45,540 bases of DNA. It comes from an uncultured Bacilli bacterium (GTDB lineage Bacteria; Bacillota_I; Bacilli_A; RF39; UBA660). The stretch lies in assembly GCA_947632495.1 (NCBI GenBank), contig CANRPL010000003.1, positions 1 to 45,540 of the forward strand, given 5' to 3'. The notes beneath the pieces were generated by a model. The model had not been told where the DNA came from and did not search any database. It worked only from the letters and a program-made list of their open reading frames with translations. The stretch's first letter is position 1, and every line of letters starts with the position of its first letter. Shown in pieces: positions 4,440-19,979 of the stretch. A program made the translations under genes and the position numbers.

Positions 4440-4465
4440 AAAATAGGAGGTTAACTCCTATTTTT
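4439..4465. terminator. Bidirectional terminator between convergent sigK and nifJ
   Basis: aaaaataggag-gttaa-ctcctattttt. Confidence 0.85.
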
Positions 4466-7400
4466 CAAGACTTTGATAATATTCGAATGACTTCATCGCA
4501 TAATCACGATTAGCCTCTAATAAAGAACTAGCTTTATCAGGGTTAATTACTTTAAGCATATTATAACGCGTTTGGTTATTTAAAAATTCATCATATAACG
4601 TAAAATCAACTTTCTTACTATCCAAAGTAAAACCATCGTCCGGATGTCTTCTAAACGTTAAGAAATATCCACATTCAGTAGCTAATTTTTCCATCGCTAC
4701 ACTATTTTCCATACCACCCTTAATACCATGAGAGATACATGGTGTGTAGGCAATAATAATAGCTGGTCCATCATACTCATTAGCTTCTTTAAAAGCTTTA
4801 ATAGCCTGAACAGGATTAGCCCCTAATGAGATTTGCGCAACATAAACATCTGGATAAGACATCGCTATACGTGCCAAATCCTTTTTATTAGTCTTTTTAC
4901 CTGTGGATGCAAACGAAGCAATCGCACCTTTAGGACTGGCTTTAGATGATTGACCACCCGTATTTGAATATACTTGGCTATCTAAAACTAAAATTTTAAT
5001 ATTATCATGACTTGCTAAAACATGGTCAATACCACTGAATCCAATATCATAAGCCCAACCATCACCACCAATACACCAAATATTACGCATCGTAATATAA
5101 TCCTTTAAGTCTTTTAATTCTTTAGGTATATTATCAGTTAAATGATCATAGACATCTTTAGTTACTTCATAACTATTAGGATTTTCTAACCACTTACTAA
5201 ATAGTGGAGCATTTTCATTATCCATATTTTGACTCATAATACGCGCTATTTTATGACGCGTAATATTGTTAGCGACTAACATACCATAGCCATATTCAGC
5301 ATTATCCTCAAATAGACTGCTAGCCCATGGAACCGTATATGGTATATTAGGGGCACTACCACCATAGATTGATGAACAACCTGTCGCATTACTAATAATT
5401 AGATGTTCACCAAATAATTGAGTAAGTAATTTAATATAAGCTGTTTCACCACATCCAGCACAGGCTCCAGAAAAGGCAAAGCGGGGTTTATTAAATTGGC
5501 TATTCTTAAGAGTATAGGTATTACCTATCTCTTTTTTAGAAATATTTTGATCTAAATAATCAAATACCTCTTGTTCAGATTGATCAATCTGATCCATCAT
5601 TAACGCCTTATTGCCACGCATACCTGGGCAAATATTAACACAGACACCACAACCCGTACAATCAGCGACAGAGGCACTTACAATATAATAGTAGTCCATA
5701 CCTATAGCCTTAATAGCGCGGTCTTTAATAATATCCGGTGCAGCTTGATATTCTTGTTCATCTAATAAGAAAGGTCTTATAACACCATGTGGACAATATA
5801 GTGAACATTGATTGCAATTAGAGCAATTTTTATTAATCCAACGGGGAACAACGGAGCTGATATATCGCTTTTCAAGACTACTTGTTCCACTTTCAAATAT
5901 ACCGTCAGCACGATCAACAAAAGCCGATACCTTTAAACTATCCCCTTTACGTTTCATAATTGTTTCTAGGAAAGATAAATTTTCTAATTTTGGTTCTTCA
6001 CCTGTCATTTCAAGTGAAAATTCTTGTATTTTTTTAGTAACTAAATTAATAGAATCAAGATTAGCTTTGACGACTTGATCGCCCTTTTTAGCAAATTTAG
6101 TTTTGATACTATCAGCAATCTTATCAAGAGCCTCATCATATGGGATAATATTACTTAAATACATAATGGCGCTTTCCATAATCATACTGATTTTACCCTT
6201 TAAACCAACTTGATCAGCTAATTCATAAGCATTGATGTAATAAAGATGGGCATGACGTTTAATTAATACTTCTTTTAAATGCTTATTCATCATTTTATTT
6301 ATTTCTTCTTTAGAATGAATAGAATTGATAATAACCGTACAGTTATCCATAACATCATCTAATAGTTCAAATTCTTCTAAATACTTATCTTTAGCAACAA
6401 CTACTAAAGAAGGTTTTAACACATAATAAGAAGAACGAATACATTTTGGACTAAAGCGTAAGTGACTACAAGTTACACCACCACTTTTTTTAGAATCGTA
6501 TTGAAAATATCCTTGAACATAATTATCAGTATTATCACCAATTAATTTAATAATTGATTTAGAAGCACTAACCATACCATCACTACCATAGCCATAGATA
6601 AGCCATTCATGAGCTTGGTCAATATCGATAGGTACGGGTGTTAAACTTAAATGGGTTACATCATCATCAATACCGATTGTAAAATTATTAACTGGATGAT
6701 TTAACATATCATATACGGCATTAATATCCGCTGGTGTCGTATTTTTACTAGATAAACCATAACGTCCACCAACAATATTGATATCTTTATCTTTAAGAGC
6801 ATTAACAACATCTAAATATAGTGGTTCACCATTACTACCAGCCTCTTTAGTACGATCTAAAACCGCTATGGCTTTTACAGATTTAGGAAGGACATTACAT
6901 AAGTATTTGGCACTAAAAGGTCGATATAGATGAACTTCAATTAAACCGACATCATCTTTAGTATCCACAACTTCTTTAATAGTTTCACAAACTGATCCCA
7001 TGGCTACTATAACTTTAGATGCATTCTTACTTCCATAGTAATTAAATGGTTTATAGTCCGTATCAGCTTTCACATTTATTTTTTCCATATATTCATTGAC
7101 AATATCTGGTAAGGCGTCATAATATTTGTTACGAGCTTCCGTTGTTTGAAAATAAATATCTTCATTTTGTGCGGTACCATAAGTACATGGATGATGAGGA
7201 TTTAAAGCGCGCATACGAAATTTAGTTAAAGCATTTTGATCAATCATATCGGCATAATCCGTAGCTTCTAAAACATCTATTTTTTGAATTTCATGACTTG
7301 TTCTAAAGCCATCAAAGAAATGCATAAAAGGTAAACTAGATTTAATACTAGCTAAATGCGCTACCGCACTTAAATAAGCGGTATCTTGAACTGAAGAAGA

Positions 7401-7820
7401 TGCTAACATTGCAAAGCCAGTCATACGGCAGGCATAAATATCTTGATGATCGCCAAAGATACTAAGCGCATGAGTCGATAAAGAACGAGCCGCTACATGA
7501 ATGACACCAGGTAACATCTCACCAGCAATTTTATACATATTAGGAATCATTAAAAGAAGTCCTTGACTAGCAGTAAAGGTCGTCGTTAAACATCCAGCTT
7601 TTAATGAGCCATGAATGAAACCCGCTGCTCCACCTTCACTTTGCATCTCAACAACTTTAACTTTATCATTAAATAAATTTAGACGTTTACTACTCATCTC
7701 ATCTATATGTTCAGCCATTGGACTAGATGGTGTGATAGGATAGATACCAGCTACCTCTGTAAACATATAAGCTGTATAACTGCAAGCTTCATTACCATCA
7801 ACGGTTATTTTCTTCTTCAT
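4458..7820 (-). CDS. nifJ: Pyruvate:ferredoxin (flavodoxin) oxidoreductase, single-chain type
   Basis: YPITPSS, EMQSEGGAAG, FFDGFRTSHE, YDSKKSGG, two CxxCxxCxxxCP motifs, GACAGCGET, TPP motif GGDGWAYDIG, YSNTGGQ. Confidence 0.97.
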   Translation of the reverse strand: MKKKITVDGNEACSYTAYMFTEVAGIYPITPSSPMAEHIDEMSSKRLNLFNDKVKVVEMQSEGGAAGFIHGSLKAGCLTTTFTASQGLLLMIPNMYKIAGEMLPGVIHVAARSLSTHALSIFGDHQDIYACRMTGFAMLASSSVQDTAYLSAVAHLASIKSSLPFMHFFDGFRTSHEIQKIDVLEATDYADMIDQNALTKFRMRALNPHHPCTYGTAQNEDIYFQTTEARNKYYDALPDIVNEYMEKINVKADTDYKPFNYYGSKNASKVIVAMGSVCETIKEVVDTKDDVGLIEVHLYRPFSAKYLCNVLPKSVKAIAVLDRTKEAGSNGEPLYLDVVNALKDKDINIVGGRYGLSSKNTTPADINAVYDMLNHPVNNFTIGIDDDVTHLSLTPVPIDIDQAHEWLIYGYGSDGMVSASKSIIKLIGDNTDNYVQGYFQYDSKKSGGVTCSHLRFSPKCIRSSYYVLKPSLVVVAKDKYLEEFELLDDVMDNCTVIINSIHSKEEINKMMNKHLKEVLIKRHAHLYYINAYELADQVGLKGKISMIMESAIMYLSNIIPYDEALDKIADSIKTKFAKKGDQVVKANLDSINLVTKKIQEFSLEMTGEEPKLENLSFLETIMKRKGDSLKVSAFVDRADGIFESGTSSLEKRYISSVVPRWINKNCSNCNQCSLYCPHGVIRPFLLDEQEYQAAPDIIKDRAIKAIGMDYYYIVSASVADCTGCGVCVNICPGMRGNKALMMDQIDQSEQEVFDYLDQNISKKEIGNTYTLKNSQFNKPRFAFSGACAGCGETAYIKLLTQLFGEHLIISNATGCSSIYGGSAPNIPYTVPWASSLFEDNAEYGYGMLVANNITRHKIARIMSQNMDNENAPLFSKWLENPNSYEVTKDVYDHLTDNIPKELKDLKDYITMRNIWCIGGDGWAYDIGFSGIDHVLASHDNIKILVLDSQVYSNTGGQSSKASPKGAIASFASTGKKTNKKDLARIAMSYPDVYVAQISLGANPVQAIKAFKEANEYDGPAIIIAYTPCISHGIKGGMENSVAMEKLATECGYFLTFRRHPDDGFTLDSKKVDFTLYDEFLNNQTRYNMLKVINPDKASSLLEANRDYAMKSFEYYQSLEK

Positions 7821-7845: not shown

Positions 7846-7873
7846 AAAAGGAAAGATATTGACTATCTTTCCT
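7846..7873 (-). terminator. Intrinsic terminator closing the PFL-like operon
   Basis: aggaaagata-ttgac-tatctttcct with T-run on the minus strand, directly at the stop of 7872..8981. Confidence 0.8.
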
Positions 7874-8981
7874 AACTTAAACATTTTGATTTGATGGCAT
7901 TTTCAATCTTATTATATCCTGATGTACGATAGTGAACTGCATCACCAAAATCAGAATTTGTAAGGCCTAAACCAGTACTGATATCGCAGTATTTTAGGTT
8001 CTTAACACGAGCATTACGAAGAGATTGTTCCATTTGAGTATTAAAGGTATCAATACTAGCTTTAGAAACAGGCCATCTACCACCACTGTTTACGCCTCTA
8101 ATAGGTGTAACTGAAGCAAAGACAACATAATGATTTTTCCATTCTGATTGAGCTTGACTAACAACTAAACTAGCATATTTTTGGGCTGAAGATCGCCCAA
8201 AATTAACATCGGAGCCAACATCATTAGCACCCATTAAAATAACAATATTATAACGTGTATTAGGATCTCTATTAAGTAGACCATTAACAGATGAAATCGC
8301 TGTTGATTTGAACCAAGCATACCCCATGGCGCCTCTTGCTACAGCTAATTCACCACGACAAGAACCAACATATAAAGAAACTGTTGCTTGACCACAGAAA
8401 CCAACCGTTCTTGAGTCACCGACATAAATTGTCTTTGTTCCTTTTTTACCTGTACGATTACTTGTTGTCGGTTCTCCTATATTACTATAAGCATTAGAAT
8501 GCGTCTCATCGGTAACATTATTACCAGAACTTGATGCATGACAATTGTCCCCCTCATCCGTTCCATTATAGTATAAGAAACATGATATGCATTCGGAAAC
8601 AGATTTAGTATCATTATCATTACTTGTTACTCTAGTAATTACAAATTGGACTATAGCAGCAATAAGAAAAATAAAGGCTGCCATAATAAATTTTTTAAAT
8701 AATTTTTCCTTTGCCTTAAGCACCTTATCGGCATCACCTTTTCTAATAGCACTAATTAAGGTTATAATTGAAAAAATCATTAAGACTAATGGAGCGCCTA
8801 CCGTAAGAAGAGTATACGCAATTGTTGTAAGTTGAGGAATAGGTTTCGGTATTCCTTCTGCACTACCACAGCCAACATACTCTAAAGCACCAGCATATTT
8901 AGCTAGACTATCACTAGTAAAAAGGATTATACCCATAAAAATGAGATATAAAGATCCTAAAATCTTACACTTTTTACTCAT
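7872..8981 (-). CDS. Membrane protein: TrbC/VirB2-pilin-like two-helix domain fused to an SGNH/GDSL hydrolase domain
   Basis: Signal-like N-terminus, two hydrophobic helices joined by GDADKVLKAKEKL, Cys-containing S/T/N linker, then SGNH blocks YVGDSRT, GAND and DAVHY. The SGNH call is strong; the pilin-like call is pattern recognition. Confidence 0.7.
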   Translation of the reverse strand: MSKKCKILGSLYLIFMGIILFTSDSLAKYAGALEYVGCGSAEGIPKPIPQLTTIAYTLLTVGAPLVLMIFSIITLISAIRKGDADKVLKAKEKLFKKFIMAAFIFLIAAIVQFVITRVTSNDNDTKSVSECISCFLYYNGTDEGDNCHASSSGNNVTDETHSNAYSNIGEPTTSNRTGKKGTKTIYVGDSRTVGFCGQATVSLYVGSCRGELAVARGAMGYAWFKSTAISSVNGLLNRDPNTRYNIVILMGANDVGSDVNFGRSSAQKYASLVVSQAQSEWKNHYVVFASVTPIRGVNSGGRWPVSKASIDTFNTQMEQSLRNARVKNLKYCDISTGLGLTNSDFGDAVHYRTSGYNKIENAIKSKCLS

Positions 8982-8982
8982 A

Positions 8983-9579
8983 CTATGCCTCCTTTAGTAA
9001 TTCTTTTAATTCATTTAACTCACCATCAGATAACTCTTCACTTGTAAGTTCAATATTTTTAATACTTTCATACATACCTAAATACTTTTTTAAGGCATGA
9101 ATGTACTCATGGCTATCATTTAAGCCCTTTTTGATAACTTGTTTAGCACTAATAGTAATTTTAGCTTCCTCTAACATATTAACAAATTTATTAACATTTA
9201 ACAAATCGTCAGTGCTTAAATTATTATAATTATATAAAGGGATACTATCTATTTCTAAAATAACGAAATCGATATGTTTAAATAAATCGCTATCTAAAGG
9301 AACACCAATACCATTAGTTATAATGCAAGTTGTAAAACCTGCCTTATGCGATATTTTAGTCGTCTCCTTTAGATAATCACTTTGCTTAAACAAAGAGGTT
9401 CCCATAAATGTTACACCACCATCATCAGGTCCAATATAAGGTCGAAACTTACGAATACGGTCGACCGTCTCGTTAGGTGTTAACGTCACGACAGCATCAT
9501 CATCCAATTTAATAACCGTCCTAATACCTGGTCCAGCATCAAAAGACATAGGATCAATAGATGTTATATTACCTTTCAT
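8983..9579 (-). CDS. Pyruvate formate-lyase activating enzyme homolog lacking the radical-SAM motif (predicted inactive)
   Basis: PflA landmarks GPGIR, GGVT, TCxxTNG, GLND, IKNIEL are present; there is no CX3CX2C (only one Cys in the protein) and GGE is replaced by GTS. 4-bp overlap with the PFL-like gene. Confidence 0.85.
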   Translation of the reverse strand: MKGNITSIDPMSFDAGPGIRTVIKLDDDAVVTLTPNETVDRIRKFRPYIGPDDGGVTFMGTSLFKQSDYLKETTKISHKAGFTTCIITNGIGVPLDSDLFKHIDFVILEIDSIPLYNYNNLSTDDLLNVNKFVNMLEEAKITISAKQVIKKGLNDSHEYIHALKKYLGMYESIKNIELTSEELSDGELNELKELLKEA

Positions 9580-11789
9580 TGTAGCACCTCATGATAAGTT
9601 TGATCAATTAAGCTCTCTTGTTGTTGAGTACTTAATTCTTTATATCTTATCGCACAACCGCCACTACGAAGAACGATATCTGAACCTTTTTTATCATTAT
9701 CTTTAGCATCCAATAGAACTTTCTTGTCAATTAAATTAAACTCGATATGCGTTCCCTTTTGGCCAAAGAAACTATCTAAAAGAACCATCATATTATTGGC
9801 GCGTTCATTTCTTTTAGTACCTAATGTATTAGCTGTTGTATTGACCGTTGTAACAATACCATTTTGACATAGATTACTAGGCAGACGCATAACTGACTTA
9901 AGGCTATTAATTAAACTCTTATTATCGATATTGCTGATAGGATTAGCATTGAAAGCAAAAGGTGCGCCTTTAAAACGTCCGTCAGGAGTTGCTCCCGTGT
10001 TAGTGCCACAAACAACATTCAAAAATGATGATGCAATTCCCATTTTAATAGTCGCATTACGATACATATGATGACTTTGTAACTCTTTACTAATCATCTT
10101 AATAGTATCTGATGCTAATTTATCGACCGTTACATCACCCAAACCAAAACGTGGAAAACTATCTTTAATAACAAAGTCCGTACTTAATCCATTTTCATCA
10201 CGATTAACTTGAACATCAGCAAATCTAATTGCTGATAGAGAATCAATAACATTAGCAAAACCAATAAGATTAAAAGTCATTGAACGTTCAACAACAGTAT
10301 CATTAAAAGCCATTAAAGAACTTTCATATCCATACTTATCATGCATATAATGGATAACATTTAAGGCATCATCTTGAATAGAAATGACCTTTTTTAGAAC
10401 TTTAACAAAATTTTTTACGACTTCAGAATAATTTAATTTCTTACCAGTAAGAGGCTCAATACCACCGATAACCATTTCGCCAGTTAATTCATCACGGCCG
10501 CCATTGATGGCGTATAGTAAAACTTTAGGTAAATTACAACTGCCACCATAGTAGTCAATTTGTTTGCCAATTTTTGATAATCCCGCCATACCTGTACTAG
10601 CATATTCAAAGCTATTTAATGTATCAGCATTTAAAAATTGTAGACAATTAAATTTAAGCATCATTTTAATACAATAACGTTTAAAATTAACTGGTAATCT
10701 ACTAGACCATAAAATTGTATAATTAGGCACTTCATAAGCACCAATATTTTCAAGTGAATTTAAAATACGATAAGATGTTTTAGTAATCATCGAATGATCA
10801 CCACTCATCCCACCAATCGTCTCTGTTATAATTGGTGCCATACCTGGAAAGCAACTCAAGTATTCAGGGGTACGTAAATATCTAAGTAGACGCAATTTAA
10901 TTAAGAATTGATCAACTAATTCTTGAGCCTCTTCCTCTGTTAATACTTGAAGGGCGATATCTCGTTCAATATAAATATCTAAAAAAGGACTATTATTTCC
11001 TGTTGGTAGTGAGACACCATATGTTTCTTTAGCGCCAGCTAGATAAGCTAAATATAACCATTCAAAAGCTTCTTTAGCGTTAGAAGCTGGTTTAGATACG
11101 TCAATATCATAAGTACTAGCCATTTGTTTTAATGCTTTTAAGGCCGCAATCTGTTTAATTACTTCCTCACGAGTTCGTACAACAGAATAATTAATATCCT
11201 TACGAAGACGTTCTAAATCGCGTTCTTTTTGTTTGATTAAATAATCGGCACCATATAAAGGTAAGCGACGATAATCACTGACAATAAAGCCACGTCCAAA
11301 AGTATCAGGCAACCCATCAATAAGATGGACTTCTTTAAACTTTTTTATTTCCTTTGTATAAACTTCATTTACCGCATCTTCATAACTTACTTGAAATTCT
11401 CTAAAGGATTCTTCAACATCATGATTAAAACGATAACCGTTACTCTTAAGAACACCTAATGAAGTATTAAGCGATATATATGGATTGATGAAATGTTTTA
11501 AAGGTTCATCCGTCTGTAAACCAACAATAATTTCATTTTTCTTATCAACATAACCAGGATCAAAATGATTAATACCCGCTAACGAAAGACTATCGACATC
11601 TAAAAGATGAGCTGCTTCTTCTTTATCTAATAATTTTTGAACTCGGCTTAAAAGACGTGTCGTTTTACGACTTATACCTTTTAGAAAATCAGAATTACCA
11701 ACATATTCTGTGTAATTATTGAGGATAAAATCTTCAACATCAGGGGTGCGTTGCCATTTAGTCCCTTTAAATCCATTCCATGCTTCCAT
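9576..11789 (-). CDS. Pyruvate formate-lyase (PflB) homolog lacking catalytic Cys-Cys (predicted inactive)
   Basis: Colinear with PflB over 737 aa (AWxGF, DFIxxNYTxY, EIIVGLQTDEPLK, GLPD, DYRRLPLYG, EEEAQELVD, LRTPEY, LYAINGG, IHYMHDKY, TGATPDGR); IACCVS is replaced by STGMAG and RVSGY by RSGGC. Confidence 0.9.
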   Translation of the reverse strand: MEAWNGFKGTKWQRTPDVEDFILNNYTEYVGNSDFLKGISRKTTRLLSRVQKLLDKEEAAHLLDVDSLSLAGINHFDPGYVDKKNEIIVGLQTDEPLKHFINPYISLNTSLGVLKSNGYRFNHDVEESFREFQVSYEDAVNEVYTKEIKKFKEVHLIDGLPDTFGRGFIVSDYRRLPLYGADYLIKQKERDLERLRKDINYSVVRTREEVIKQIAALKALKQMASTYDIDVSKPASNAKEAFEWLYLAYLAGAKETYGVSLPTGNNSPFLDIYIERDIALQVLTEEEAQELVDQFLIKLRLLRYLRTPEYLSCFPGMAPIITETIGGMSGDHSMITKTSYRILNSLENIGAYEVPNYTILWSSRLPVNFKRYCIKMMLKFNCLQFLNADTLNSFEYASTGMAGLSKIGKQIDYYGGSCNLPKVLLYAINGGRDELTGEMVIGGIEPLTGKKLNYSEVVKNFVKVLKKVISIQDDALNVIHYMHDKYGYESSLMAFNDTVVERSMTFNLIGFANVIDSLSAIRFADVQVNRDENGLSTDFVIKDSFPRFGLGDVTVDKLASDTIKMISKELQSHHMYRNATIKMGIASSFLNVVCGTNTGATPDGRFKGAPFAFNANPISNIDNKSLINSLKSVMRLPSNLCQNGIVTTVNTTANTLGTKRNERANNMMVLLDSFFGQKGTHIEFNLIDKKVLLDAKDNDKKGSDIVLRSGGCAIRYKELSTQQQESLIDQTYHEVLQ

Positions 11790-11817
11790 ATTATCACTTC
11801 CAAATACTATTATTTTA

Positions 11818-13833
<2,016 letters not shown>

Positions 13834-13871: not shown

Positions 13872-13899
13872 AAAAAACTATATCTTTAAGATATAGCTT
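13872..13899 (-). terminator. Terminator after dfx
   Basis: Minus strand gctatatct-taa-agatatagt followed by a T-run. Confidence 0.75.
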
Positions 13900-14263
13900 A
13901 TTCTTCTACTTCTTTTTCCCATAGACCATGTTTATTACAATATGCATATAATTTAGCATGTGGATAATAATCAAATGTAACTGTAGCTTCATGATGAGGA
14001 GCTAATTTTTTGGTAACTATTTCTTTTGGAGACTCCATACTGATCCACTCAATATAGTGATCATCATCCATAACATGATTAACCGTTACTTCCATTTTAT
14101 TTTCTTTAATCGTATAAGTTGGAACGTGTTTCTCAAAAGCTGCATCGACAGAATTAGGAACGACATCCTCCATCTTTTCATCGCAGCACATAAAACCACA
14201 TTTACAATGACAATCATCAATTACATAAATGAAAGCTCCACAATTATTACATTTTTTATACAT
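13898..14263 (-). CDS. dfx: Desulfoferrodoxin / superoxide reductase
   Basis: CxxC...CC desulforedoxin centre, EKHVP, HxMxxxHYIEWI, YCNKHGLW. Start set at ATG 14263 after AAGGTG. Confidence 0.93.
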   Translation of the reverse strand: MYKKCNNCGAFIYVIDDCHCKCGFMCCDEKMEDVVPNSVDAAFEKHVPTYTIKENKMEVTVNHVMDDDHYIEWISMESPKEIVTKKLAPHHEATVTFDYYPHAKLYAYCNKHGLWEKEVEE

Positions 14264-14274
14264 ATAAATCACCT

Positions 14275-17875: not shown

Positions 17876-19132
17876 ATGGAAATAGAAGGTATGCATAAAA
17901 AACATAAATTAGCTTGTGATCAATATGAAGAAATAAAAAAGCCCAAAGAGATTTACCTACCTCTTATTATCGGTAATGATACTGATCTAGTAGTCCTAGT
18001 TAAAGTTGGTGATCACGTCTATAAAGAGACGATGGTAGCCTATAACAAAGGTAAATTTAAATCTTATCTACATTCAAGTATTAGTGGAACGATTAAAGCT
18101 ATAGAAGATAAAACATACTCTAATGGTCAAAAAGTTAAATGTTTAATAATTGAAAATGACTATAAAGAACAAGTCCAAAAAAGAACTGGCGTTAAAGAGG
18201 AAATCAATAACTATAGTAAAGAAGAATTTATTGAAATAATCAAAAATGCTGGCATTGTTGGATTAAGTGGTAATGGATTTCCTACATATGTTAAATATGA
18301 TACGGATAAAAAGATTAAAACCTTAATTGTCAATGCGATAGAATGTGAGCCTTACTTAACAGCTGATTATACCATTTTAAAAAATAAATATCGCGAAATA
18401 TTAGAAGCTATCGACGCGATATTAGATATTAATAAAATTGATGAATGTCTGATCTGTATATCTAAAAGGAATCGAAAACTTATCAAACTATTAAATCAAT
18501 ATACAGGAACTTATTTAAGAATCAAAATTGTTAGCATTAAAAATGCTTATCCGATGGGATGGGAAAAAGGATTAATCAAAGAGGCAACTGGGCTAACTTA
18601 TGATGGCCTTCCTAGTGAATGCGGTATTATAGTCAACAATGTATCAACAATATACGCGATCTATAAAGCCTTAAAAAGTGGTACACCACTATTGGAACGT
18701 ATTATTACAATATCGGGAGAATTAGCCCCTAAACACACTAATGTTTTAGCGAAAATTGGTACCCCTATCAAAGACATAATTGGGGAAGTAGACTCAAATA
18801 ATGTTTTAATTATCGCTGGTGGTCCAATGATGGGTCATGCATTAGTTGATTTTGATACTATGGTAACCAAACAGGCTAATGGATTACTACTTATAAAAAA
18901 AGAAGATAGGCAAGAAACAGCTTGTATTCACTGTGGTAAATGTCTTAAATATTGTCCATGTCATCTAGCACCCATTCTCGTAAAAGGAAAAAATAAAGAC
19001 GAATTAAAAAAATTAAATGTTGATAAATGTATGGATTGTGGTCTATGCTCCTATGTCTGTCCTGCACGTATTCCTTTAAAAGACTACATGGATGAAGCTA
19101 AAAAAAGCATCAAGGAGGTATCACATGAATAA
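17876..19132 (+). CDS. rnfC: RnfC/RsxC-like flavin/Fe-S electron transport subunit
   Basis: HSSISG, AGIVGLSGNGFPT, NAIECEPYLTAD, YPMGWEK, GGPMMG, CIHCGKCLKYCP and CMDCGLCSYVCP. Confidence 0.9.
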   Translation: MEIEGMHKKHKLACDQYEEIKKPKEIYLPLIIGNDTDLVVLVKVGDHVYKETMVAYNKGKFKSYLHSSISGTIKAIEDKTYSNGQKVKCLIIENDYKEQVQKRTGVKEEINNYSKEEFIEIIKNAGIVGLSGNGFPTYVKYDTDKKIKTLIVNAIECEPYLTADYTILKNKYREILEAIDAILDINKIDECLICISKRNRKLIKLLNQYTGTYLRIKIVSIKNAYPMGWEKGLIKEATGLTYDGLPSECGIIVNNVSTIYAIYKALKSGTPLLERIITISGELAPKHTNVLAKIGTPIKDIIGEVDSNNVLIIAGGPMMGHALVDFDTMVTKQANGLLLIKKEDRQETACIHCGKCLKYCPCHLAPILVKGKNKDELKKLNVDKCMDCGLCSYVCPARIPLKDYMDEAKKSIKEVSHE

Positions 19133-19979
19133 CAATGGTCCTTATATTTTTAGTAAACTATCTACTAAAAGAATAAACTTAAATATTCTTTTAGCGCTTC
19201 TACCAATTACTTTTTACTTTATTATTAAAGATATTAACACCCTAATACCATTAGGAACAATCGTAATAACAACCTATCTATCAGGTATATTATTACACTA
19301 TCTATTTCATCATCAGCTAGTAATAGATGACTTAAGTACCATTAATATTGGGTTAATATTAACATTACTTCTACCTACTGATATTCCTTTTTACTTCTTG
19401 ATAATTGGAAGTATAAGCGCTACAGCAGGTAAATTCATCAGTAAAGATTTACTTAATCCACCTTTAATAGGTTTTATTGTTATCATTTTATTAAGCCTAT
19501 TATTTCGTTATAGTATCAACTTTCCAGGATATGATCTTATCAGCATCATTTTAGTTATTGGCGGATTAATATATCTTATTCTAACAAAATCTATTAAATA
19601 TGAAATTGTCATTAGTTATCTTTTGATGATCGTCACTATCTTTATCATTATGACATGGAAAAATAGTTTACCTATTGATAATCTTTTAGAAGAACGTCTT
19701 CTTCTAACTGGTATATTTCTATTAATGCATCATCAAAGTACACCTATAACTCAACATAGTATGATTATCTATGGCCTATTTATCGGTATCGTTACAGCTT
19801 TTATCTATTATCATACTCTACTACCTAGTGGCATTATCATCAGCATTTTAACCGCTAATCTTTTTACCCATATTTTAGATTATTTAATTTTAACTAAAAG
19901 AAGAATATTTATTATCATACCATATAGTATATTATTAATATTATTTGGTATAACTTTACTGACAAACATAAGTATTTAA
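19125..19979 (+). CDS. Degenerate RnfD-like integral membrane protein
   Basis: GPYI N-terminus, ILLALLP, DLST...GLILTLLLP, LNP, GGLIYL, STPIT...YGLFIG resemble RnfD; the FMN-threonine loop is absent. Start ATG 19125 with GGAGGT, overlapping the rnfC stop. Confidence 0.75.
   Translation: MNNNGPYIFSKLSTKRINLNILLALLPITFYFIIKDINTLIPLGTIVITTYLSGILLHYLFHHQLVIDDLSTINIGLILTLLLPTDIPFYFLIIGSISATAGKFISKDLLNPPLIGFIVIILLSLLFRYSINFPGYDLISIILVIGGLIYLILTKSIKYEIVISYLLMIVTIFIIMTWKNSLPIDNLLEERLLLTGIFLLMHHQSTPITQHSMIIYGLFIGIVTAFIYYHTLLPSGIIISILTANLFTHILDYLILTKRRIFIIIPYSILLILFGITLLTNISI

Follow-up and report, generated by a model that had tools for sequence, protein, structure and literature searches.

The window analysed here, a stretch of 45,540 nt of contig CANRPL010000003.1 (GenBank assembly GCA_947632495.1) from an uncultured Bacilli bacterium (RF39; UBA660), carries two adjacent genes, pflB* and pflA*, encoding homologues of pyruvate formate-lyase (PFL), a glycyl-radical enzyme (GRE), and of its activating enzyme (PFL-AE). 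The two genes have intact frames, are disabled for catalysis and are held by purifying selection, not in decay, and they descend in place from a canonical ligA-pflB-pflA(-nifJ) locus. Each product is an enzyme homologue that lacks the catalytic residues of its family and is kept by purifying selection, i.e. a pseudoenzyme, and such a pair is new for families in which none is described. It is on balance probable that PflB* and PflA* constitute a selected non-radical, non-catalytic system derived from a displaced ancestral pair, with PflA* serving as an accessory partner in the lineage of the window.

The pflB* gene (9576..11789, minus strand) encodes a PFL-fold protein of 737 amino acids (aa) and pflA* (8983..9579, minus strand) a 198-aa activase-derived protein. 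The ATG of pflA* overlaps the TGA of pflB* in the sequence ATGA (9576..9579, minus strand), GAGGTG lies 5 nt upstream, and the two genes are translationally coupled. An earlier note on this DNA, made from the letters alone, had described two intact open reading frames (ORFs) of these lengths with this overlap, and both ORFs were confirmed as described. The pflB* frame contains no stop codon compared with 37-123 in the other five frames, and 200 shuffled sequences gave a mean of 58.5 and a minimum of 41 stops; for pflA* there are 0 stops versus 4-39 in the other five frames, with a mean of 17.5 and a minimum of 7 in 200 shuffles. Both frames are far longer than chance permits.

PflB* matches PF02901 (E 7e-124) and PF01228 (E 2e-16), so that a PFL-like barrel and a glycine-radical domain are both present, and its alignment with E. 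coli PFL scores 579.7 bits (to 1cm5_A), the fold being assigned from sequence matches only. On the PFL equivalog model TIGR01255 it reaches 730.7 bits, under the cut-off of 994.2. The substitutions against E. coli PFL, whose numbering is used below, include R176F, W333I, C418G, C419M and R435S, and at the positions for the adenine of coenzyme A (CoA) Asn145 is changed to Glu and Gln146 to Asp. In the available text of a 2026 review of GREs (PMC13450708), Arg176 and Arg435 are the residues that hold pyruvate in PFL, and Asn145 and Gln146 those that hold the CoA adenine. The earlier note had named a CoA/metabolite sensor as one option; the replacement of both pyruvate-binding arginines and of Asn145 speaks against a pyruvate or CoA sensor of the canonical type. 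The radical glycine itself is kept, G711 of PflB* being the equivalent of Gly734 in an RSGGC stretch aligned to RVSGY.

PflA* matched no family in a Pfam search, Radical_SAM included, and on TIGR02493 it scores 70.8 bits, under the cut-off of 231.75, with only profile positions 44-194 matched. Compared with canonical activases, a clean in-frame deletion of 16 residues takes out the CX3CX2C motif, and PflA* would therefore be unable to hold the cluster; the [4Fe-4S] ligands of PFL activase are C29, C33 and C36 (PMC13450708, available text). The GGE motif (Gly77-Gly78-Glu79) reads G-T-S, its second and third positions being variable in the PflA* family, and another ~21 residues are deleted close to the C-terminus. 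The N-terminal GPGxR loop is kept and the family has invariant motifs of its own (family alignment A2). The AlphaFold2 model of PflA* has a predicted local distance difference test score (pLDDT) of 90.9 and a predicted template modelling score (pTM) of 0.86, and its best structural match is PFL-AE 3cb8_A (E 1e-13; template modelling (TM) score 0.87 on the model's length; root-mean-square deviation 2.7 A). As modelled, PflA* folds as a confident radical S-adenosylmethionine (radical-SAM) half-barrel, i.e. a partial TIM barrel. A PflA* search of a library with 1.84 billion representatives gave only 2 matches at E <= 1e-30. CX3CX2C is gone in 35/35 members of the PflA* family (cluster representatives including the query), and two further matches in the database search are canonical activases. 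The proposal that catalytic motifs had been lost in both proteins thus held for the cysteine pair, the arginines and the glycyl-radical fingerprint of PflB* and for CX3CX2C and GGE of PflA*; what has to be added is that Gly734 is retained, which the earlier note did not state.

The genus comprises 20 genomes, 19 of which were examined at residue level (G011, being fragmented, was left out). A PflB*-like gene is present in all 20, with no internal stop in any full-length match; among the 19 examined, the frames of ~740 codons are complete and uninterrupted in 18 and intact to the contig end in one. The carriers are AT-rich genomes of 1.1-1.8 Mb. ligA precedes pflB* in 19/19 loci and nifJ lies downstream in 17, the exceptions being L011, where the fetched stretch stops first, and L016, which has an unidentified 477-aa frame at that place. 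The PflB* tree consists of two clades, one of eight genomes, including that of the window, with PflA* (frames of 172-202 aa), and one of 11 genomes without PflA* at the locus. Among the best 120 database matches of PflB*, 69 are canonical, and 51 share the disabled state, 39 falling in the first clade and 12 in the second.

dN/dS was determined by the NG86 method for PflB* pairs above 70% identity (n=29) and ranged from 0.044 to 0.218, and the same genome pairs gave 0.045-0.104 for their canonical PflB; the values are approximate since dS is ~1 or more (saturated), a first point that tempers the case for selection. In the closest pair of the PflA* lineage, G005-G019, dN/dS was 0.139 for PflB* and 0.137 for PflA*. 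The lowest PflB* values, 0.044, 0.083 and 0.116, were found in the clade formed by G001, G012 and G017. The view that selection and not decay had shaped the pair, put forward in the earlier note, is thus borne out by 19 unbroken orthologues, dN/dS of ~0.04-0.2 and a loss concentrated at the sites of chemistry. The note had named broken or absent orthologues, dN/dS near 1, lack of expression and previous characterisation of the family as findings that would speak against it; as far as these could be checked, none was encountered, and a look-up of RNA sequencing runs for 8983-11789 listed none.

The loss in PflB* is concentrated at the chemistry sites, and the N-terminal half is best kept. Residues 1-100 and 151-300 keep 68-77% of the columns conserved in canonical PFLs, residues 301-400 (W333 and the approach to the Cys loop) 33-38%, and residues 101-150 (the CoA-adenine region) and 651-737 (the radical domain) 20-24%. 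Overall, 193/378 canonical-conserved columns are kept in the clade of the window and 285/378 in the other clade. Position 418 is Gly in all 19 orthologues, and R176 and R435 occur in none of them. The GRE fingerprint, RVxG[FWY]x6-8[FL]x4Qx2[IV]x2R (PMC13450708, available text), is found in 0/38 proteins of the PflA* lineage, in 0/12 of the other disabled lineage and in 54/69 canonical PFLs. Gly734 is kept in all eight genomes and all 38 database proteins of the PflA* lineage, where it forms part of a new R-N-x-G motif (R in 34, N in 34 and G in 38 of the 38), and position 734 is Glu in 9/11 genomes without PflA*, a clade that also keeps W333 and has K at position 176. Some members of the PflA*-less clade (G016 and five database proteins) keep both Cys419 and Gly734; unlike the protein of the window, these may be active GREs of altered specificity.

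The genome of the window (G000; 1.24 Mb, 82 contigs, 80% complete) contains a second pair on contig C2: a pflB of 742 aa with ACCVS and RVSGYAV and, directly after it, a pflA of 233 aa with CPLRCLFC and GGE, both canonical in their motifs. A canonical pflBA is found elsewhere in 14 of the 19 other genus genomes, and in 8/9 genomes examined for context the order is sigma factor gene, pflB, pflA and a fourth gene. Both the orthologues and the second pair that the earlier note had left to be looked for in related genomes were therefore found (20/20 genomes; contig C2). The pyruvate:ferredoxin oxidoreductase (PFOR) two genes downstream of the pair, which the note called working, was also confirmed by its domain matches (see below); the suggestion that it could make PFL catalysis dispensable is not supported, the canonical pflBA on another contig being the nearer cause. 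No canonical PFL or PflA above the cut-off was found in G001, G005, G008, G012 and G017, which are 88-95% complete. Since G001, G012 and G017 form one clade, their case looks like one real loss and not three assembly gaps; G005 and G008 carry PflA* without any canonical target. With gating of FocA in mind, a FocA match (PF01226) was sought in G000 (80% complete) and none was obtained.

The origin of the pair can be traced at the ligA-linked locus. The PflA* alignment search led to two uncultured Bacilli genomes, with loci L062 and L063, in which the genes after ligA are a pflB and a pflA of fully canonical type, with nifJ next in L062 (L076 and L077 repeat L063 and L062 and were counted once). 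Each genome has a single PFL, and both canonical activases contain the DRIRKFRPYF motif, otherwise typical of PflA*. In all, canonical genes in the order ligA-pflB-pflA were seen in five genera of the family besides this one (G021, G063, G188, G098 and G070), with nifJ next in G063. With three Clostridia PFLs as the root, the PFL tree places the 19 PflB* and the PFLs of L062 and L063 in one clade (support 100 in the Shimodaira-Hasegawa-like approximate likelihood ratio test, SH-aLRT) apart from the canonical PFLs of the genus. Approximately unbiased (AU) tests, whose groups were defined after inspection of the first tree, rejected a clade of PflB* with the canonical PFLs of the genus (difference in log-likelihood, delta lnL, 505; p 4e-67) and also a clade that joins PflB* to the full set of 16 PFLs of the second lineage (delta lnL 97; p 1e-9). 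An origin of PflB* by duplication of the sigma-linked PFL within the genus is rejected by these tests. In a family sample of 301 genomes, 154 had a PFL match (E <= 1e-200) and two PFLs were present only in G000; a search for PflA* in the 300 other genomes (214 genera) found none.

Three observations concern other PFL loci. The canonical, ligA-linked PflB of G021, a member of another genus, is nested with those of G018 and G006, which are canonical and sigma-linked, with support of 100 (L036, L037 and L038); this hints that pflBA has moved from genus to genus within the family. The ligA match of G024 (L048, G024:C14) has one in-frame TAA, and either an assembly error or a broken ligA is possible. 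In three other families of the class (L042, L043 and L044 in G034, G026 and G032) the PFL frame of ~683-716 aa matches full-length PFL only to about residue 675 and is followed by a separate glycyl-radical frame of 83-86 aa, a natural split of core and radical domain.

The reading favoured here is that a second canonical pflBA, beside a sigma-factor gene, would have taken over PFL catalysis in the genus; the resident ligA-linked pair would thereby have been displaced and would then have lost its radical chemistry, yet been kept instead of deleted. PflB* would retain the PFL barrel, the N-terminal half best, and would act by binding and not by turnover; it is this half through which GREs dimerise (PMC13450708, available text). 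The existence of three sister species without the canonical pair, in which PflB* is most constrained, indicates that PflB* is independent of a working PFL, and this independence argues against a role as an obligate partner, decoy or regulator.

In the lineage of the window, PflA* would have become a cluster-less accessory partner of PflB*, and this is probably its role there, because the genes are translationally coupled, the N-terminal GPGxR loop is kept, PflA* has invariant motifs of its own, and the tip glycine of the PflB* R-N-x-G motif is invariant only where PflA* exists. We take the GPGxR loop to be the one that closes over the substrate peptide; published text says no more than that 'loop A' of the activase closes on peptide binding. 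A bolder version, which can be put forward only tentatively, is that the cluster-less activase is a permanent non-catalytic subunit gripping the Gly loop of a dead GRE, a new type of complex independent of active PFL. If true, PflA* and PflB* would be a natural pseudoenzyme pair without precedent in the GRE and activase families, and their complex would have a binding, regulatory or structural role. Complex prediction for PflB*-PflA* (alignments A1 and A2) scored 0.01 in each of two runs, the mark being 0.32, which, as the runs had no controls, is neutral.

Several further findings weigh against the preferred interpretation, most of them against the part assigned to PflA*. PflA* is dispensable, being absent from 11/19 orthologous loci, i.e. 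lost in the other clade, and three genomes have only a shortened frame of 172-184 aa. The glycyl-radical domain, its proposed contact, is the least conserved part of PflB* in the PflA* lineage: it keeps 5/25 canonical-conserved columns, and in residues 701-737 three columns are conserved at >=90%. The association of Gly734 with PflA* represents one evolutionary transition. The PflA* lineage evolves fast, the G000-G019 path measuring 0.75 changes per site versus 0.12 for canonical PflB, so part of the divergence may be due to relaxed constraint. Finally, the absences of the canonical pair are all in incomplete metagenome-assembled genomes.

G000 and 14 of the 19 other genomes contain both the disabled and the canonical system, which raises the question of whether one acts on the other. 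PflB* could heterodimerise with canonical PflB, or PflA* could compete with canonical PflA for the Gly loop, as a regulator, decoy or prozyme-like partner. The best conservation of the part of PflB* used for GRE dimerisation (PMC13450708, available text) and the retention of the GPGxR loop in PflA* would suit such a role. It is nevertheless unlikely, given that five of the 19 other genomes have neither canonical gene, that three of the five form the single clade with the strongest constraint on PflB* (dN/dS 0.044-0.116), and that G005 and G008 possess PflA* with nothing canonical for it to target. The proposal of the earlier note of a decoy or regulator that heterodimerises with a genuine PFL or sequesters its activase is not supported, for the same reasons.

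A comparably low probability is given to the possibility that PflB* is a new non-radical enzyme or a small-molecule binding protein that uses the remodelled centre of the barrel. The replacements at the former active site are themselves conserved: Gly418 is universal in the 19 orthologues, the PflA* lineage fixes Y432, P275, N278 and E at canonical N689 at 97-100%, and the other lineage largely fixes K176, E734 and C735 and, as given above, keeps 285/378 canonical-conserved columns. The pocket in the clade of the window, however, is variable and mostly hydrophobic (L/I/V/T/M at 419, S/T/N/V at 435 and F/Y/H at 176), which looks like cavity filling and not like a defined polar site.

The invariance of Gly734 in the 38 proteins of the PflA* lineage might also mean that PflB* is a glycyl-radical protein still, its glycine being loaded by canonical PflA for altered chemistry or as a radical store. 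According to the available text of Kammel et al. 2025 (PMC12338860), the radical is still introduced in vivo into an engineered C418A/C419A variant of E. coli PflB, which keeps this idea alive at low odds. It is very improbable all the same, as the Cys loop of the window's protein has no Cys (G-M), the GRE fingerprint is broken in 38/38, the specificity of the activase depends on the sequence of the Gly loop (PMC13450708, available text), PflA* cannot hold a cluster, and G005 and G008 have no canonical activase.

That both genes are functionless relics which have simply not been destroyed yet is hardly credible: the fast evolution of the PflA* lineage and the loss and shortening of PflA* would fit, but 18 of the 19 PflB* frames are complete and the remaining one is intact to the contig end despite saturated synonymous sites, dN/dS is 0.04-0.2, and the database adds 51 cluster representatives of the PflB* kind.

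A defence system was also considered and rejected. PADLOC gave PflA* only weak radical-SAM-fold matches to pVip (E 1.6e-4 and 7.9e-4), and its models matched neither PflB* nor the neighbouring gene.

The pair shares with E. coli PflB and PflA (PDB 1h16/2pfl and 3cb8) the two-gene order, the coupling, the folds and descent from a canonical pair at the same locus. Unlike E. coli PflB, PflB* has no Cys418/Cys419, no Arg176/Arg435 and no GRE fingerprint; unlike E. coli PflA, PflA* has no CX3CX2C and no GGE; and, unlike canonical PFL and PFL-AE, both stay under the NCBIfam equivalog cut-offs. By fold and descent they are PFL and PFL-AE, and by the defining features they are not members. PflB* resembles GrcA/YfiD in that it derives from PFL without catalysing the PFL reaction itself, and its C-terminus matches GrcA models weakly (23-48 bits, cut-offs 145-170). 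GrcA, however, is a short radical domain on its own (~80-130 aa), has an intact fingerprint, carries the radical and repairs PFL, whereas PflB* is full length (737 aa) and its radical domain is degenerate. Like the accessory subunits of GREs, PflA* would be an accessory protein placed on the radical domain of a partner with the GRE fold; those subunits, unlike PflA*, are not derived from an activase and serve an active enzyme, and the PflA*-PflB* contact is putative. Prozymes are dead paralogues that partner an active enzyme, e.g. the S-adenosylmethionine decarboxylase (AdoMetDC) prozyme of trypanosomatids. PflB* is likewise a dead paralogue kept by selection beside an active copy; it persists, unlike prozymes, where the active paralogue was not found, so an obligate prozyme role is unlikely.

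The earlier note knew of no described system of this kind, and the literature search agreed with it, finding no natural dead PFL and no cluster-less GRE activase, although papers beyond those searched and the supplementary tables of sequence-similarity-network surveys could hold such clusters. A term search of the available text of the 2026 GRE review (PMC13450708) gave no relevant mention of natural dead members. GREs and their activases are treated as strictly catalytic pairs; here a dead enzyme and a dead activase are retained in a genus and their origin is traceable, a resident pair having been displaced by a working copy. They offer a clean system for asking what the GRE and activase folds do without radicals. 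The disabled genes are easily labelled PFL or activase, so that metabolic reconstructions of uncultured gut Bacilli could over-count PFL, and for the five genomes in which no canonical pair was found formate production could be wrongly inferred. P0153, a relative of PflA*, carries the source name 'pyruvate formate lyase activating enzyme'; for seven family proteins, the search for source names gave none beyond one JGI label.

Upstream of the pair lies ligA (11818..13818, minus strand), the conserved neighbour that marks the ancestral pflBA locus. The spacer of 28 nt from the ligA stop to the pflB* start (11790..11817, minus strand) contains the Shine-Dalgarno-like motif GGAAGTGA, and no terminator-like site was found when one was looked for in this spacer. 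Downstream, the nifJ-type PFOR gene (4458..7820, minus strand), the other conserved neighbour, has the full expected domain set, matching the POR_N, PFOR_II, POR, EKR, 4Fe-4S dicluster and TPP_enzyme_C models. Co-transcription of the pair with PFOR was rejected, as a terminator-like hairpin (7849..7873, minus strand; a consensus match only) and a promoter-like site are situated at the junction of the preceding membrane-protein gene with nifJ. The adjacency of PFOR is therefore more likely inherited than functional.

The membrane-protein gene (7872..8981, minus strand) begins 1 nt past the pflA* stop and encodes a 369-aa product with a hydrophobic N-terminal part (conserved ...YVGCGSAxGIPKPIPQL...) and a weakly GDSL/SGNH-like C-terminal part (23.1 bits, under the cut-off of 32.9). 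A homologue follows pflA* in 7/8 PflA*-bearing loci, the eighth (L011) ending first; it is shortened to 153 aa in L010, occurs in two copies after pflB* in L015 and is not present at the canonical L062 locus.

Two other regions of the window deserve mention. Between valS and ligA, in the co-directional gene string of ligA, an oxygen-defence gene (13898-14272, minus strand) encodes a 124-aa protein of the desulfoferrodoxin family (PF01880, E 1.5e-12). At 17876-19979 on the plus strand, genes for RnfC-like (418 aa) and RnfD-like (295 aa) proteins are followed by a metallophosphoesterase gene instead of rnfG/E/A/B, and they possibly represent a reduced or split Rnf cluster.

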